Positions 17,696-49,753 of a stretch of DNA of 64,000 bases are shown piece by piece; within the stretch, counting starts at the first letter, position 1, and the number at the start of each line of letters is the position of its first letter. Position numbers and translations under genes: made by a program. The DNA comes from Girardia tigrina (taxonomy: Eukaryota), in NCBI GenBank assembly GCA_001938485.1, contig MQRK01244224.1, positions 21,310 through 85,309 of the forward strand. The letters run 5' to 3'. The notes beneath the pieces are model-generated. The model saw nothing but the letters and a program-made list of their open reading frames with translations, ran no database searches and was not told the origin of the DNA.

Positions 17696-18563
17696 ATGAA
17701 AGAGCAACAGCTCTGAGACATTGTTAGCACATTTTGGAGAATGGGTTACACGAAAGGAAAGTCCTTCAACGTGAAACACTTCTTACAAGAGGTATTTGCA
17801 CGCTCGACAATCTACTCCATCCTTACAAGACTACAAATGAATTTGGATGTGTCTCACAAACCAGGGAGGGGTGGATATAATAAGAAACCAACAAACGCCT
17901 AACGAGCCATCATCTGTCGATGGTCAGTAAACAAAAGGAGTGTGTCAATCCGACAAAAAGCCAAGAAACACAATGTGAGTCATCAAATATCAGAAATATT
18001 CTCAATGAATGGGGAGTTCGATTTTATACACCTGCGAACATCGTACAGGAAAATTAATTGAAGTTTTGAGAGGAAAAATGATTCTTATCAATGACGAGTG
18101 TTATTTCAAACTCAAATCTGTTCATCTACTCAGTAATGATCACTTTTGCACCTCGGACATCCAAGCCACTCCCCCTCTGGTAAAATATTGAGCTGAAAAG
18201 AAGTTGATGGTCTGGATCTATGTTTCAGACGATGGAAAGGTTTATGCACCCGTGTTTCTTGAACGACCCATTAGTATCAATGCCAAATTCTATCAGGACC
18301 ATTGCATTAACACTGCATTGGTTTGGTTTATTGAGAAGGAGCACCGAGAGAGCAATGTTATGTTCTGGCCAGACCTTGCGTCAGCACATTACGCAAATTC
18401 CACACCGCAACTGTTGGAATCACTTCATGTCTCATTTTTGCCCAAGACATCCAACCCTCCAAACATTCTCCAATGCCGTCCAGTGGAGAATTTTTTAGAA
18501 AATCTTAAATCCGAAGTTTATAAGGGAGGCTGGGAGACCACGAACATCATGCATAAAGCGTAA
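17696..18563 (+). mobile_element. Tc1-like DD37E transposase, decayed
   Basis: ILINDECYF...FWPDLASAHY...NPPNILQCRPVE, with 37 residues between the second D and the E; frameshifts and stops upstream. Confidence 0.8.
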
Positions 18564-21033: not shown

Positions 21034-24000
21034 TCTCCCTAGATTCGGAAGAATCTAACTCATACAATGTGACATAATTACAGAATCTCCTTGGAGGTCA
21101 GCGCTCACGAACGATCGATTCCGTTTAATCTTGTTGTGAAGAATCGCTCAGATCCGAAACACTCAATTGAAATCGCGGTCTTAGATCTGCAATATGGCGC
21201 AACGAGTCAACATTCCTTATGGTTACTAAGAATTTGATTGGATTTATTATCACCTTGATAACTCCTTTACCAATTTTTTGTTGCATTGCTGGGCCTGATT
21301 TGGTTTCACCCATACTTTATCTCCCTCTTTGAACTTGGCTAAAAATTTATCTTCGCCAATATGATCTGTTGAGTTAACGACCAACTTCAACCGAGGTTTA
21401 TATCTGTAAAGAATTTCGGCTGCGGGCCTATCGCTTTTTCCTGGAGCATTATTCATCCAATACACAGTTTCTTGGATTCCATTCCCTGCTCTTGCGGCTA
21501 ACGCTTTGATGGTTCGATGACTCCTTTCGATTATTCCATTACCATTCGATCTACTTACAGCACGGCATATGACATTGATGCTCCACGCCTTCATCTCCGA
21601 TTTAAAGGCTTCAGGATGGAAAGACGAATAATTGTCCACCAACNACTCGTTAGGAGGTCCACGATCATAGAAAATATTTCTTAAGTTCTTAATGACTTCA
21701 GAAGCTCCCTCGTCCCTAATTTTTCTCCACATTGCAAACCTTGATGGTCAACAATAATAATCAATGATTGTAAGATATTTGGACTCTTCAAACTTCTACA
21801 CATCGATGGCAATTCTTCTTCAAATTTCATCGACTTCAAGATTCCTCTTTTCCATCAGACCGGTGCCGGATCAATGGATTGACAATGATTATACTGAAGG
21901 ATGTTTGCTGAATATCTTTTTCACTGACATTGATGTTGAACTCCTTCGCCTAATAAATCAATTGCTGTAGTTCCATATGCGTTCCGTCGTGAATTTCCTT
22001 AAATTTTTCGATGTCCGATTTTAGTAGAGCTGATACAACATTATCGATTTATCGGAAACCATTTTTGAGGAATTATCGTGAGAATATCTGCATTATTCAT
22101 CTCAGACCTGACGTAGACCACACAAAATTTTAAATTATATTCATTCACGAGATCTTTTAGCAGGTTAAATCTTCTACGGATTAATAACTCTGGATCAGCC
22201 TTAATCTTGTTTTTTTAAGTATTTTCAATTACATTCCATATCCAACCACATACTACTTGACTATCGAGTCTCAGCTCAATATCGGAAAAACCCCAAGCGA
22301 TTGCTAAATTTAACTCTTTTATGGCCGCTTCTAGCTCTACTAAATTAATATGCCTACAGTCATAAACTTTTCGGAGCCTTGAAACGTCCTTAATTCTTTA
22401 ACCATCAACATCTAAACGGACTCCTAGTGCCAATGAACTGGCATTACACCAGACGGTGGCTCTATTTTTATTCTTCACAGACCAAATTCCTTTCGCACAA
22501 TCATTTACCTTTATCCTTTCCACTATGTCCACGATCTCTTTCTTCAACTCGTCATGTATCTGACGGTCTCAGTTTCCGTTAGATTGCCGTTTAAGATACG
22601 AATTTGTAATTCTTAACCAACCACAGACGGGGTGGATACCAATGACTTGACCACAAAAGGAATACAGATCTCGTCTTGTTTTGACGTCTTCATGATTTAA
22701 ATTTAATCTATGTGCCTGCCTCCAATAAAACACACCGCGATCGTCTCCGTACACTTCTAGACCTAATACTCTGACTGATTTTTCTTGCTGAAATTTTTCA
22801 GGATCTTTCGAAACTAAGCCAAATTTCAGTAAATGCTCCCCATGCTCTCTACTGATACTTTACTTTCATCCACGAATATATCATCAATATAAACATCAGC
22901 GGCTTTATTAATATCAGGATCCATGGACAATACTTTCTCCACTATTTTCGTCAAAACCGTTGGTCCAACGTTTAAACCAAAATCCATTCTGTTGAACGCA
23001 TATCTCTTATGTTTATACAACACCGTTTGATACGGTAACATTTAGTCTTCTACGAACACTTGCATATATGCGTCCTTCAAATCCAACATTGGTCAATTGT
23101 CGGACTTTTTCTCCACTTTCGCAGCTTCTCATCATGGGCCGCACTATTTACACTATACACATCTACGTACTTATTGATATTTCTGAAATCGAAAACAGGT
23201 TGAACTTTATCTTTATTTGTTTGAACTTGGTCTGTATAAGAAAGTTTTATTGTTAATTTTTTAATTTTCGAAAATAAGAACTTCGTTTTCTTGGGAATAG
23301 TACACTTAGGGCGCCCAAATTTACATTTGTCATACGAAATTAAAAATCCCTTTCGATAAACTGTTTTATAACTTCTTCGAATTTGACCTTTGATGATGGA
23401 CTGACATTGTAGTAATCACAACGATAATCAAATTTGGGTTCTTCTATCGACCATTTCCATCTCAATATCCAACACTTGTCATATAACACCTCAAATTTCT
23501 TCTCTGTTATTTTCATACACTCGACTTGTTTTTCATCGACAACATCCGCTGCGGTTCAATTCACTTTCTCACAGCCGAAAACGGCCTCTTTATCAATTTT
23601 CACATCTCCAAACTTCTGAATCACATCTAGACGAATAAAAGCTTTATAACCCGACAACATTTTATTAACAATCAAACCTGTCGTAGAACATTTTTCATCA
23701 CCAATAATAACTTCCAAATCGGCTTCCAGAGTTCCAAATCTACTACCATCCATCATAGTTATCGTCCTATCAAATTTCGACGGCTTTCCGACGACAATAT
23801 TTCTGCATGCACCGGAATCGATTACAGCTTCAACTTTACGGCCATTAATGATAAGAGACCTAGTAATTAATTTTAATTCAGGAGTACATGCGGCTTCTAC
23901 TGCGAAGTACTCCCATCTTCGTTTTCCGAATGACAATTCTTAGCCGAATGACCATAACCCTTGCATGCTTTGCCTCTTAACCAGTTTCTACACTCGTTGA

Positions 24001-33550: not shown

Positions 33551-33670
33551 AATGCTTCAAACAAATAATGTTTCAAACAAATAAATATTGAATCGGATTT
33601 CATTCTGAAGTAGGGGAAAAATAAGCATTCGACATCAATCGATAATTGACCCCTCCTGGAGGTGTTACCC

Positions 33671-33989
33671 GTTTACATGGTAACGGTTACCATAGCAACG
33701 GCTCCGGTTACCTTTGCAACGGTTTCAGTTATCTTAGCAACGGTTCGGGTTCACTTGGCAAAGTACTTGGCAACGCTTTTGATTGGTTCCCGGCACCCTA
33801 GCAACGTTTCCGATTGCCATGGAAACGATTCTGATTGGTTCCTTAGCCTAGGCAACAATGGTTTCAGTTTCCTTAGCAACGGTAACTAAGGGACCGTTTT
33901 CATTAGCAACGAATACAGTAATTCAAGGCGGTTATAAACATGGTAACGGTAACCGTATCCATAGCAACCGTGACCTCTTTCTTAGCAAC
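33671..33989. repeat. Array of about 14 RFX X-box-like motifs with two inverted CCAAT boxes
   Basis: Examples: GTTACCATAGCAAC (33686), GTTACCTTTGCAAC (33707), GTTATCTTAGCAAC (33728), GTTTCCTTAGCAAC (33867), GTATCCATAGCAAC (33955); GATTGG at 33781 and 33833. Confidence 0.8.
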
Positions 33990-34466
33990 CGTAGAAGAAA
34001 GTGCTAATGGATCGCTGCACAGTGCCCAAATGTGCTAATCAATACTGCATATTTTTAATGTGTTAGCACAGTGCTTTTCAAGCTGCACATGTGCAAAAGT
34101 GCAAAAATCAATACATAAAAATTTTTAAAAGTGCTAGTGTCAAAAATCAATATCATGTGTTTGATGCACATTTTGATTCTTTATCTGAATTTGCAATTTG
34201 AATTCTCGTATATTGATAAACTTTTCCTATAATTAACAAGATGTGCAAAATTACACAAAAAACACATCGATTTAAGAGGTACAAGGAAGCAGAATATCAA
34301 AAAAGTGCTCATGCACTTGAATAGGAACCCATATATGTACCTTCAGATGCCATGTCAACATTTTCGAAAAAGTGCTGAAATATTGATTTATTCGAACATT
34401 TCTGAAATTCTCAAAANNNNNNNNNNNNNNNNNNNNNNNNNNNNNNNNNNNNNNNNNNNNNNNNNN

Positions 34467-34599: not shown

Positions 34600-34942
34600 T
34601 TACATAGTTGTAAACGAAATATAGTGAAAAACACGTGTAACAAAATCCTTATATTTTAAATCTCTCAAACCTGATTTGAAGTAGTCTTTTTCAAAGAATT
34701 GATATTAATAGGCTCACCATAATCACATGTCACTGTTATAGATTGTATAGTAACATTAGTGATATTGTAAGGTAAAGTGGATAGATAGGTTGTTTACATC
34801 ACATTATTTGACATTTTCCATTGCGGAAGAATATGATGGTGTACTCCGGAAAGTGTAACACATATTTACACGGTTTAGTACCAAAATGGAGATCTTTCAG
34901 ACAATCGCCAGTAAATCCTTTATAATTGATATTACGCAGCAT
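34600..34942 (-). pseudogene. Small intronless TBP-like (TATA-binding protein fold) gene, decayed
   Basis: MLRNINYKG...TIIFFRNGKCQIM*CKQP../..NITNVTIQSITVTCDYGEPINI../..GLRDLKYKDFVTRVFHYI mirrors TBP ALIFSSGKMVCTGAK...FKIQNMVGSCDVKFPIRL. One TGA falls at the conserved Gly; frameshifts and an apparent internal deletion. Confidence 0.65.
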
Positions 34943-35162: not shown

Positions 35163-35909
35163 ATGATGAGATATCGTAACATCCAGACATTTTGTCATTA
35201 TTTGAAAATCCGTTTGACAAATCAAGTTGCTCCTGCTAAAATGAAGTGGAAGTTTAAAACCTTCAATGAACTTAACCAGGTAACTGAAGAAAAGAAGATT
35301 GATGATGAGACAGTTAATGGACCTAACCAATTAACTGAAGAGATAAATGCTGATCAACCTAAGCTAGTCGAACCAGCCAGGCCAGTAGGGTGGCCTAGAC
35401 TAATCAAACTGCCCAGGTTAGTTGGGCAATCAATAGTAGTCCAGGCTAGCCTAGGCACTCAGACAACCAAGGATATTCAGGCGCCAATTACTGAAGCCCA
35501 GGTTAGTCAGGCTAACCAAGCTAGTTATTTTCAACCAAAACAAAGAGATGCTCCACAAAAATCTTCATCACTTTGGGTTTCTACATCAACAACATATAGA
35601 GGTTATCAGATTAACTTGTTGAAATATCCAAAATCAATTAAATTGAGAGATCCGGTATATGTTAGAAAGACCAAATTTAGCTCTCATGTAGAAGACATTA
35701 GTTATCGCAATTATGATATTTTGAATGTAGCCCTACAAGAAGTAGGAACAAGACCAGATGAAAAGCTGAGTGAACACCGAGAACAATTTTTTCGATCAGA
35801 TGATGGATTAAAATTCAGAGATTTTATGGACCATGAAAAACAACAATGGACTTTTCTCATTATACTATGGCATTTATCAAAATATGCATGCAAGGTAGAA
35901 AAGAAATAG
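35163..35909 (+). CDS. Orphan intronless ORF (248 aa from first ATG), probable Polinton accessory gene
   Basis: Longest gap-free ORF in the window, with a low-complexity Q/P/A/E middle. Lies between the TBP-like gene and pPolB; no recognisable motif. Confidence 0.5.
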   Translation: MMRYRNIQTFCHYLKIRLTNQVAPAKMKWKFKTFNELNQVTEEKKIDDETVNGPNQLTEEINADQPKLVEPARPVGWPRLIKLPRLVGQSIVVQASLGTQTTKDIQAPITEAQVSQANQASYFQPKQRDAPQKSSSLWVSTSTTYRGYQINLLKYPKSIKLRDPVYVRKTKFSSHVEDISYRNYDILNVALQEVGTRPDEKLSEHREQFFRSDDGLKFRDFMDHEKQQWTFLIILWHLSKYACKVEKK

Positions 35910-36334: not shown

Positions 36335-36823
36335 TCACAAGAAATAATGTCCGTGAGGTAGTGTACTTATCCCATCTGTCAAAATATGTCGTTTATCGTC
36401 AAACCAGTCCAGGCTTTTCTTCCGCATCATTACTGTAGAGACTTGATATTCTCTTGATTGAATCCTTCGCATTTCAGAAATTATATTGATTTGTTTCCGT
36501 AGCACTCTCATATAATCATGGAATCCGATTTGGTTTGCTAACGTTACCCCTTGAACTCCCTTGGCCCTCTTTTTGATCTTACCATCCACATCAATGTCAT
36601 ACATCTCAGACCGTAGTGTTACGAATCTAAAGATGATTTGACCATTGACTTCATCCTTAAACTTTCCAAGGACCTTTTTATTTGATGTTGAATAATTTTG
36701 ATGGTCCTTTGGACAGTCTGAAGTATCCATATGTTGAGTCATTTGAAAAAACTCCGCAAACATATCTTCTGTATGAATCTGATAGACAAAGCTATCAGTA
36801 TCCATATACATTAGCTGTAAATC
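36335..36823 (-). mobile_element. Protein-primed family B DNA polymerase C-terminus (Polinton/adintovirus-like)
   Basis: LMYMDTDSF, NKKVLGKFKDE, LRSEMY, KRAKGV and DDKRHIL..STLPHGHY are typical Polinton pPolB motifs; the 5' part is missing. Confidence 0.9.
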
Positions 36824-36839
36824 CTACTACATTCCAAGT

Positions 36840-48369: not shown

Positions 48370-49753
48370 CTAATTTTGTATTGTTAAAAAAAAGAAATCT
48401 TAAACGATTTGTGGATTGCGAGCTAATCTGGTGTATAAATTTGATTGTCACGGGTGTAAAAACTCGTACATTGGAGAGTGAAGAAGACAGAAAGGAATCG
48501 GACGGAACTTATAGACATAAGGCTACCACATCCAATGGATATAATTGCATGTAAAAGACTCACGTTCCATTGAAAAATGGACTCCACAGAGACGAACATA
48601 CTTCAAAGACTGTGGAGAGCAACTATACCAATTGGAAAGAAGATCAGTGGAGGGAGCGAACAAATGATGAAGGAATATCTCAGTGTCGATGTGAAATGGC
48701 TATTCGGCGAAGATGCTGATTACAATGAATTTGTACAACCAATTATTCGCCGAGACCCCACCATTTCACAGAGCACATACATAGCTGGACTTATTAGGAA
48801 AAGAAGATCAGAAAGGACAGTAACAAATTTATCCAAACTCATCTGCCCGAGGGAGAAGATAATTCATTGTCCTATAGACGACTGCTTCAAAGAGTTTGCG
48901 GAAGTAAAGGAACTTAACAGGCACATGAAGATGGATCATATAGAGAGGGGTGATCAGGAAGAACCAGACTGAGCTAACAAGTTTAAATGCCACAAATGCA
49001 ACAAAGGTATAAGACAAGAAGATGGCTAATAAGACATTTGAATAAGAATCACAGAGTAGACATGAACACAGAGGAAGAAAATCAAATTAAACTAACAACA
49101 AGTGCAACAAATAAAGGAAGCAATACAACGGAAGCAGATACATCACAACATATATCAACTACCAATTCTCGGTTAGCGAAAGAACCTCCGACAATCTCAA
49201 TGGTGGTGGAGCAAACGATTAATCCCGAAGATACGCACTTGACTTTTAGGATCACTGACTCAACAGCGAGAAGAGAGTTGAAGTGCCCCTTTTGCGGCTG
49301 TGCTAAGTCCACTAACACAGCCAAAGGGATGCTCAATCATGGTACCACAGTACATGATTGGTTGGTTGTTGATTGTCACAGGTGTAAAACTCGTACATTG
49401 TTCCATTTTTCAATGGAACAGGGAAGCCAAAGAGATCTCGGAGACTGAAGCGATTCGACCCAGTAGGAGGCCTATCGGAGTAGCAACCACTGTTTAGTTT
49501 AGGTAGACCCTCTAAAGGGCCTAGTGGCTCAATACCATTCAAAAAGATGGGAAGCCCACATTGGAGAGACAAATCGTCATCTCAAAACGCGAATTAGTAA
49601 ACATTCTCACTCTAGTCGATCAAGTAAGGTTCTTGATAATTGATTACAATGTAAAAATCGAATCTCTTCTGTTTTAAAGGATGAGTTTTCTTCACACTAT
49701 GAGCGATAGTTCTGTGAATCATTTTTATACGACATACAACCCATTAATAAACA
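48370..49753 (+). mobile_element. Penelope GIY-YIG fragment interrupted by a 1.08-kb insertion
   Basis: LRANLVYKFDCHGCKNSYIGE (to 48478) resumes as IGETNRHLKTRI (from 49558); ACATTGGAGAG is duplicated at both junctions. Confidence 0.85.
48479..49557 (+). mobile_element. Rearranged 5' fragment of a C2H2 zinc-finger element (probably R2-superfamily non-LTR)
   Basis: Three C2H2-like fingers: CPIDDC..H..DH, CHKC..H..NH and CPFCGC..H..VH; one stop and one frameshift; flanked by an 11-bp TSD. Confidence 0.6.

Follow-up and report, generated by a model that had tools for sequence, protein, structure and literature searches.

A Polinton family of Girardia tigrina divided into two complementary elements with like ends, one of which carries a miniature TBP-like gene

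New here is a Polinton family whose genes are distributed over two complementary elements that bear the same terminal repeats. Segment A (~8 kb) is composed of a terminal inverted repeat (TIR), a TBP-like gene, an SSB-like gene, a protein-primed family B polymerase (pPolB) and a second TIR. Segment B (~9 kb) runs from its TIR through two small ORFs, a packaging ATPase, two small ORFs, the integrase, the minor capsid, core and major capsid genes, the protease and an exonuclease-like gene (EXO) to the opposite TIR. We consider it probable that this Polinton is bipartite and that the miniature TBP (mini-TBP) encoded by A activates the late genes encoded by B in trans.

The window copy and the mini-TBP family

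The window, a stretch of 64,000 nucleotides, is AT-rich eukaryotic DNA and derives from an assembly of 1.43 Gb. In it lies a degraded segment A of the split family, spanning 33609 to about 36825 (Table 1). The original prediction described a miniature TBP-like gene interrupted by one TGA and by frameshifts, and its quoted peptides are all found in place on the minus strand: the ATG at 34942 is followed by IFFRNGKCQIM, the TGA at 34799-34801 and CK, a second frame carries QSITVTCDYGEPINI, and a third carries GLR..Y..V..V, the stop lying at 34600-34602. Alignment with an open-frame sister copy resolves the frameshifts into a 4-nt deletion (34789/34788) and a 91-nt deletion (34672/34671), the latter of which removed codons 93-122, the most TBP-like stretch. 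Judged by its broken frame, the window copy is a non-functional pseudogene, and its N-terminal piece taken alone has no match in Pfam. The SSB-like gene of the window departs from the family frame near codon 226; the second end of the element is lost and the target duplication of this copy is unreadable. A 100% identical duplicate of the remnant on contig C73456 is probably an assembly duplicate or an allele. Other repeat debris in the window (21250-23041, 18207-18563 and 48577-49448) comprises fragments that weakly match a reverse transcriptase (E 0.004) and a DDE enzyme, along with zinc-finger ORFs.

Table 1. Features of the segment A remnant in the window
Feature	Position	Strand	Remarks
Terminal inverted repeat (TIR)	33609..34416	+	Starts 5'-AGTAGGGG; terminus common to many copies with unrelated flanks
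Subterminal 21-bp repeats within TIR	33684..33990	+	X-box-like palindrome at 33686
TBP-like gene, broken copy	34600..34942	-	145-aa family; sister copies match PF00352 and TBP structures
SSB-like partner gene, divergently transcribed	35163..35909	+	Low-complexity N-terminus and predicted T7 gp2.5/Enc34-type fold; family mapping
3' end of family B polymerase (PolB)	36335..36825	-	88% identity to sister copies

The proposed likeness to TBP is borne out by the open-frame sister copies, which encode 145 aa. Three of them match PF00352 in two stretches each (E 3.6e-13, 3.5e-16 and 1.7e-13) with 49.6-59.2 bits against a curated cut-off of 22.9 bits, so that the likeness of the window gene to TBP is not a matter of chance. 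The DNA search of the assembly provided 40 scored loci, the best of 1,254 candidates, and the protein search 152 matches, many of them stop-free, after scoring 150 of its 1,680 candidates; candidates are not to be read as copy number. The gene forms a high-copy family with at least 150 copies in the genome. A 20-sequence alignment retrieved 278 relatives among 1,980 candidates, and the 120 listed are 127-213 aa long and all contain PF00352.

Structure prediction for an open-frame paralogue, as suggested at the outset, likewise points to TBP. The AlphaFold model reached a pLDDT of 70.4 from a 9-sequence alignment, with a poor N-terminus (pLDDT <50 at residues 1-11 and 16-23). Among the Foldseek matches listed, all 43 at E<=0.001 are TBP entries. 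Z scores against TBP structures lie between 8.0 and 10.8 (2z8u: Z 10.8, rmsd 5.1 over 126 residues; human 1cdw: Z 9.9, rmsd 3.8 over 128 residues), the next fold scoring 6.6, and the best PDB sequence match is the archaeal Sulfolobus TBP 1mp9 (E 3.5e-12). Mini-TBP is thus predicted to take the two-repeat TBP saddle fold. The second repeat is well preserved and keeps the YEPE-FP stirrup; the first is shortened and degenerate in the alignments, where it lacks both the NPKRF stirrup and the helix that follows IFxSGK. Positions invariant in 20 diverse family members include F39, E96, F98, F114, G117 and G123. We take the three conserved phenylalanines F39, F98 and F114 to be DNA-facing, intercalating residues of TBP, and the stirrup phenylalanine of the first repeat has no clear equivalent. 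Contact with TFIIB is made in TBP by the second stirrup; TFIIA and regulators bind the helix that is missing from the first repeat of mini-TBP.

The gene had been proposed to be an element-encoded TBP homologue and not a retrocopy of a host gene, and both parts of this proposal hold. In the tree, which is midpoint-rooted only, with bootstrap not settled and three of the four host rows being single exons, the 25 element rows are set apart by a 100/100 branch from the four host and five cellular rows, i.e. the element copies do not nest within the host genes. Capture of a processed pseudogene of host TBP by a repeat would fit an intronless gene that is broken in the window, but is highly improbable given this branch, the weak BLAST similarity to host genes (best E 6e-4), the 278 database relatives and the setting of the gene within Polinton loci in other, metagenomic DNA; the tree rules out a host TBP retrocopy, barring an overlooked close host paralogue. 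The genome's own TBP-family genes (L178-L184) are distinct from mini-TBP; at least three have introns, and an intronless divergent paralogue occurs on several contigs.

Two complementary elements with the same ends

Where TIR pairs bracket TBP copies, the genes between them are TBP, SSB and PolB only (C248235, 8.3 kb; C235521, C230377, C232877). Segment B was found by searching the genome with the capsid and ATPase of the metagenome locus L109, and consists of a TIR-bounded ATPase-to-EXO block without polymerase (C223974, about 9 kb; C243296, C171887, C222879, C222231). Its integrase matches rve (E 7.5e-13) and its ATPase Pox_A32 (E 3e-5), the protease is called by homology to a Peptidase_C5 relative, and the capsid assignment, with PF21738 on 24% of the top cluster, is a lead. 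EXO has no match in Pfam and owes its exonuclease label to motif reading.

As to the other products of segment A, a model of a homologue of the SSB-like protein (pLDDT 88.7) matches 4klk (Z 8.3, rmsd 2.9, 106 aligned), the Enc34 SSB (Z 8.1, rmsd 3.1, 110 aligned) and T7 gp2.5 (Z 7.4, rmsd 3.3, 111 aligned), the next unrelated fold scoring 5.5; with these middling Z values the protein is predicted to have a gp2.5/Enc34-type OB fold. PolB gave no polymerase match in direct Pfam, PHROGs or PDB sequence searches, and PHROGs no match for four element proteins. The C-terminal half of PolB from a sister copy reaches 0.97-0.98 to DNA_pol_B_2 clusters in the ESM Atlas (PF03175 on 14-36% of members), which marks it as a pPolB, and the N-terminal part contains an endonuclease VII domain.

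The 182 mapped records, partly redundant as some contigs were fetched more than once, comprise 80 with A genes, 90 with B genes and two with both, and A and B genes are adjacent within one element in none of the 182: in the two shared records a TIR (L153) or 9.7 kb (C185658) lies between them. Top-hit contig lists (147 TBP, 150 PolB, 134 EXO and 149 o83; 2 TBP and 16 EXO rows of an unsplit sister family left out of the overlap count) share six contigs between TBP and PolB and nine between EXO and o83, and none in the four comparisons between A-type and B-type lists. Of 30 EXO loci, 24 have a TIR on the 3' side of the gene and six have no recognised feature there, at least two of these near contig ends. 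Upstream of the first B gene a TIR was found in 19/30 and nothing recognised in nine, the gene being absent in two. Among 51 TBP records, the 3' end points towards a TIR in 27, towards no recognised feature in 22 and towards a tandem TBP in two. The outer ~800 bp of the TIR are common to segment A, segment B and the sister family; TIR identity averages about 0.87 between and within classes, and A and B TIRs are intermixed on a tree of 79 sequences. X-box-like palindromes, presumably of the RFX X-box type, are also present in sister TIRs, the window having one match in the TIR and none elsewhere; through these palindromes the element ends could be open to a host factor of ciliogenesis or of the germline.

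All seven terminus pairs readable by eye show 5/6 or 6/6 matches in their 6-bp flanks. Target duplications of A-type elements are 6/6 in C246418 and C228835 and 5/6 in C248235; C232877 scores 6/6 inside a microsatellite and is hence uninformative. The B-type elements C223974 and C229322 each have 5/6. C237719 was excluded from this reading, its ends being 99% identical including the flanks, perhaps as an assembly artefact. Since the A-type copies are devoid of an integrase gene, we infer that they were inserted by an integrase encoded elsewhere. L145 (C239140) and L139 (C215111) are short elements of about 1.3-1.8 kb that consist of two TIRs without a recognised gene, and L145 has a perfect 6-bp duplication (6/6).

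The genome also contains a second family, with 65-75% identity in TBP, ATPase and EXO, in which the genes of A and B are joined, in the order TIR-o117-TBP-SSB-ATPase in L265 and MCP-protease-EXO-PolB in L280. Both mixed A-B junctions are multi-copy, and the junction-seeded loci are mixed in 21/21 cases by construction of the selection; the family is pieced from short, partly masked contigs, with no whole copy end to end. It is evidence for the unsplit ancestral state and, because it has the same TIR and a similar age, also the main rival helper for both segments. A fragment of a parvovirus/papillomavirus-type superfamily 3 helicase (L275:3671-4174) lies close to one sister-family copy.

Selection among copies, which had been proposed as a test, was assessed from pairwise 0-fold/4-fold ratios among A copies, with intervals from codon bootstraps that ignore the relatedness of the copies. 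The ratio is 0.38 (0.27-0.55) for TBP (28 copies) and 0.44 (0.29-0.72) for SSB; two parts of PolB have 0.39 and 0.23. Singleton changes in TBP affect 0-fold (162/280) and 4-fold sites (29/51) equally, as expected of decay after insertion, and alleles present in at least three copies are depleted at 0-fold sites (23/280, versus 19/51 at 4-fold sites). The mini-TBP gene was thus under purifying selection while A diversified. The ratios of B genes span 0.54-1.0 (ATPase 0.87 and 0.79; EXO 0.72 and 0.82; integrase 0.91; MCP N-half 0.54), with an interval below 1 for the MCP N-half only; B genes show a star-like burst, uninformative on selection either way. Diversity at 4-fold sites amounts to 0.11-0.32 among A copies and 0.05-0.10 among B copies. 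The singleton load per copy, about 2%, is alike in TBP and ATPase, so A and B were inserted at similar times.

The same data bear on the possibility that A and B, without depending on one another, are separate non-autonomous deletion lineages that the sister family mobilised. Mini-TBP would then still be an element gene, and the complementarity would reflect where deletions fall easily. This scenario is consistent with a multi-copy sister family that joins A and B genes and shares their TIR and approximate age, with the mobility of gene-less TIR-only elements such as L145 (6/6 target duplication), and with the heterogeneity of the A side, where PolB-only, TBP+SSB-only and TBP-only copies and PolB in both orientations are found, as expected of ordinary deletion derivatives; internal deletions also occur among segment B copies. 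The sister family could, moreover, have helped both pieces, and the B ratios near 1 give no sign of selection on B after the split, which counts against a bipartite organisation. Passive passengers should, however, decay neutrally, yet the ratios of TBP, SSB and PolB in the A lineage are 0.23-0.44. Identity to the genes of the sister family is about 65-75% for A and for B alike, so that both left it at similar depth, and the two separate blocks missing from B are exactly those that A keeps, with no mixed derivative seen. On balance we regard independent deletion lineages as unlikely. Three of the PolB-only elements (C248193, C246418, C228835) carry, ahead of the polymerase start, an inverted copy of the arm that follows its stop, which in one of them extends into the last 20 codons; end homogenisation may explain the PolB orientation flips.

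Another scenario assumes a full-length master of the subfamily, unassembled or rare, with A and B as its deletion products and a selection signal that predates the deletions. The assembly consists of 255,254 contigs, is partly masked and was sampled by best hits only; a rare full-length copy could be missed because of this fragmentation and sampling. Such a master is nevertheless improbable, as there are no cross-type junctions in 182 records and no common contigs in the four cross-type comparisons, the junctions of the sister family assemble readily, and the greater 4-fold diversity in A than in B is unexpected from one master.

Outside this genome, a metagenome scan for mini-TBP yielded 35 loci with the element-type gene in L104-L131, the weakest seven having cellular contexts. 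A single stretch of L109 holds SSB, TBP, ATPase, integrase, capsid-like genes and PolB, and TBP accompanies the structural block in L121, L114 and L117; of 15 pattern matches in IMG/VR none was confirmed. Some of these loci also contain a gene for an E2 ubiquitin-conjugating enzyme (Pfam E 1.7e-12) or an apparent secreted leucine-rich-repeat gene, judged by eye (L109:225-719, L118:1918-3327, L122:1307-1843). The metagenome contigs L134 and L135 each contain two divergent TBP paralogues ~2 kb apart, adjoined in L134 by an integrase-like ORF. An ORF at L015:388-714, which we take to resemble a membrane-active virion peptide of other Polintons, has 150 matches in the Girardia genome, implying that further Polinton families are present; considered as a mark of the full-length element, it was rejected, as it belongs to those other families and has no family coverage in the studied loci.

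The TATAAACR box and a candidate trans-acting switch

For nine B genes, the copies with an exact TATAAACR within 70 nt of the start codon number 28/31, 23/27, 24/30, 13/19, 15/17, 3/3, 5/7, 0/7 and 3/5, the protease and EXO starts not being among those scored. The box thereby precedes eight of the nine genes, the exception being the core gene, mostly at a distance of 33-46 nt and on one strand only. Three whole B elements contain 11, 7 and 8 boxes in sense and none in antisense orientation, with about one expected. No box precedes TBP (0/38 copies) or SSB (0/27 copies), and five A elements have 0-1 boxes each. The segment encoding mini-TBP is almost box-free, and the other is boxed before nearly every gene. 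The same box lies upstream of the ATPase genes of the metagenome loci L109, L107, L121, L114, L110 and L111.

Consistent with these data we propose a scenario for the bipartite Polinton. Segment A would act as the early segment, whose polymerase and SSB might copy both DNAs in a protein-primed manner from the shared ends. Mini-TBP would bind TATAAACR and recruit host TFIIB and RNA polymerase II to the B genes, the integrase of segment B might insert both segments, and its capsid might package either of them. The split parts mini-TBP from all its candidate promoters while selection persists, and this separation under selection is the best indirect evidence found for an action of mini-TBP on the late genes in trans. 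More tentatively, the family may represent a natural bipartite integrating dsDNA virus of animals, in which early and late segments reassort and complement each other, mini-TBP serves as the trans-segment switch and capsids form only when both are present.

A separate question from the origin of the layout is whether, the split being real, host TBP or a forkhead protein reads TATAAACR, with mini-TBP serving as a decoy for TBP regulators or as a terminus binder. TATAAACA is presumably also a forkhead site, and the matches listed include, by title, solved structures in which cellular TBP is bound to TATA variants, so host factors could read the box. The overlap of the motif with the forkhead consensus and the X-box-like palindromes of the TIR, both labels being our assumption, would agree with this, as would the degenerate first repeat of mini-TBP with its two stretches below pLDDT 50. 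Against it stand the fixed spacing of the box from start codons on a single strand, in the fashion of a core promoter, the same box before ATPase genes of TBP-bearing metagenome elements, and the invariance of the three presumably DNA-facing phenylalanines in 20 diverse members. We therefore consider a host reader somewhat unlikely and favour mini-TBP itself. The combination of a 145-residue TBP and a variant box offers a small model for the minimal requirements of RNA polymerase II initiation.

Relation to known systems

Mini-TBP resembles cellular TBP (PF00352), eukaryotic and archaeal, in Pfam profile and predicted fold, but has 145 aa instead of about 180, is about 20-26% identical and forms a separate clade; the full core of canonical TBP, with both long helices and both stirrups, is not present. 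Fold matches to TBP-like proteins of large DNA viruses (Nucleocytoviricota), namely of Moumouvirus, Heterosigma akashiwo virus and Aureococcus virus, have E values of 3e-4 to 9e-4. Viral TBP-like proteins serve as late-promoter factors, and Nucleocytoviricota-type viruses mostly bring their own RNA polymerase. Mini-TBP is 15-20% identical to these proteins and, in contrast, belongs to an 8-kb element without its own RNA polymerase.

The family shares with Polintons/Mavericks (adintoviruses) that have an endonuclease-VII-bearing pPolB the 5'-AG TIRs, 6-bp target duplications, the pPolB, an integrase of the rve+chromo type, an A32-type ATPase, a C5 protease and a DJR-like capsid. According to the consulted part of PMC6431247, Polintons are 15-25 kb long and have PolB and integrase in one element. 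In the mapped records of the split subfamily PolB and integrase do not occur inside one TIR pair; the polymerase resides on one TIR-bounded element (about 8 kb) and the integrase/capsid genes on another (about 9 kb), and TBP-like and gp2.5-like SSB genes are added. A gene 'similar to TATA binding proteins' is named in the Fig. 5 legend of Starrett et al. 2021 (PMC8502044) for MELD virus, described there as a midsize linear dsDNA element that has, as here, an adintovirus-like PolB. This 'TBP' may be a mini-TBP of the Girardia type; section 3.4 of PMC8502044 gives no mechanism, promoter or segmentation for it, and one supplement has no match for TBP or TATA. The word 'bipartite' in the relevant passage of PMC12220804 refers to networks. 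The open-access literature searched yielded no account of a Polinton whose genes are apportioned to complementary TIR-bounded segments (figures, subscription papers and bioRxiv supplements lying outside).

The step from a single-genome ancestor to a multipartite virus is poorly understood, and natural examples that preserve the states before and after it are rare. With many dated copies of one Polinton lineage in both split and unsplit form, the Girardia genome makes this transition accessible to a study by sequence alone. The nearest known case to the split Polinton is that of the Bidnaviridae, represented by Bombyx mori bidensovirus, which, as far as described in the consulted part of PMC4061559, have two linear, separately packed segments with TIRs and a Polinton-derived PolB. 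Bidnaviruses differ, according to the same part of that source, in their ssDNA, a parvovirus-type capsid, the location of the capsid gene and PolB on one segment, and the loss of the Polinton morphogenetic genes. The Girardia family keeps the whole Polinton gene set in divided form, and both of its pieces integrate.
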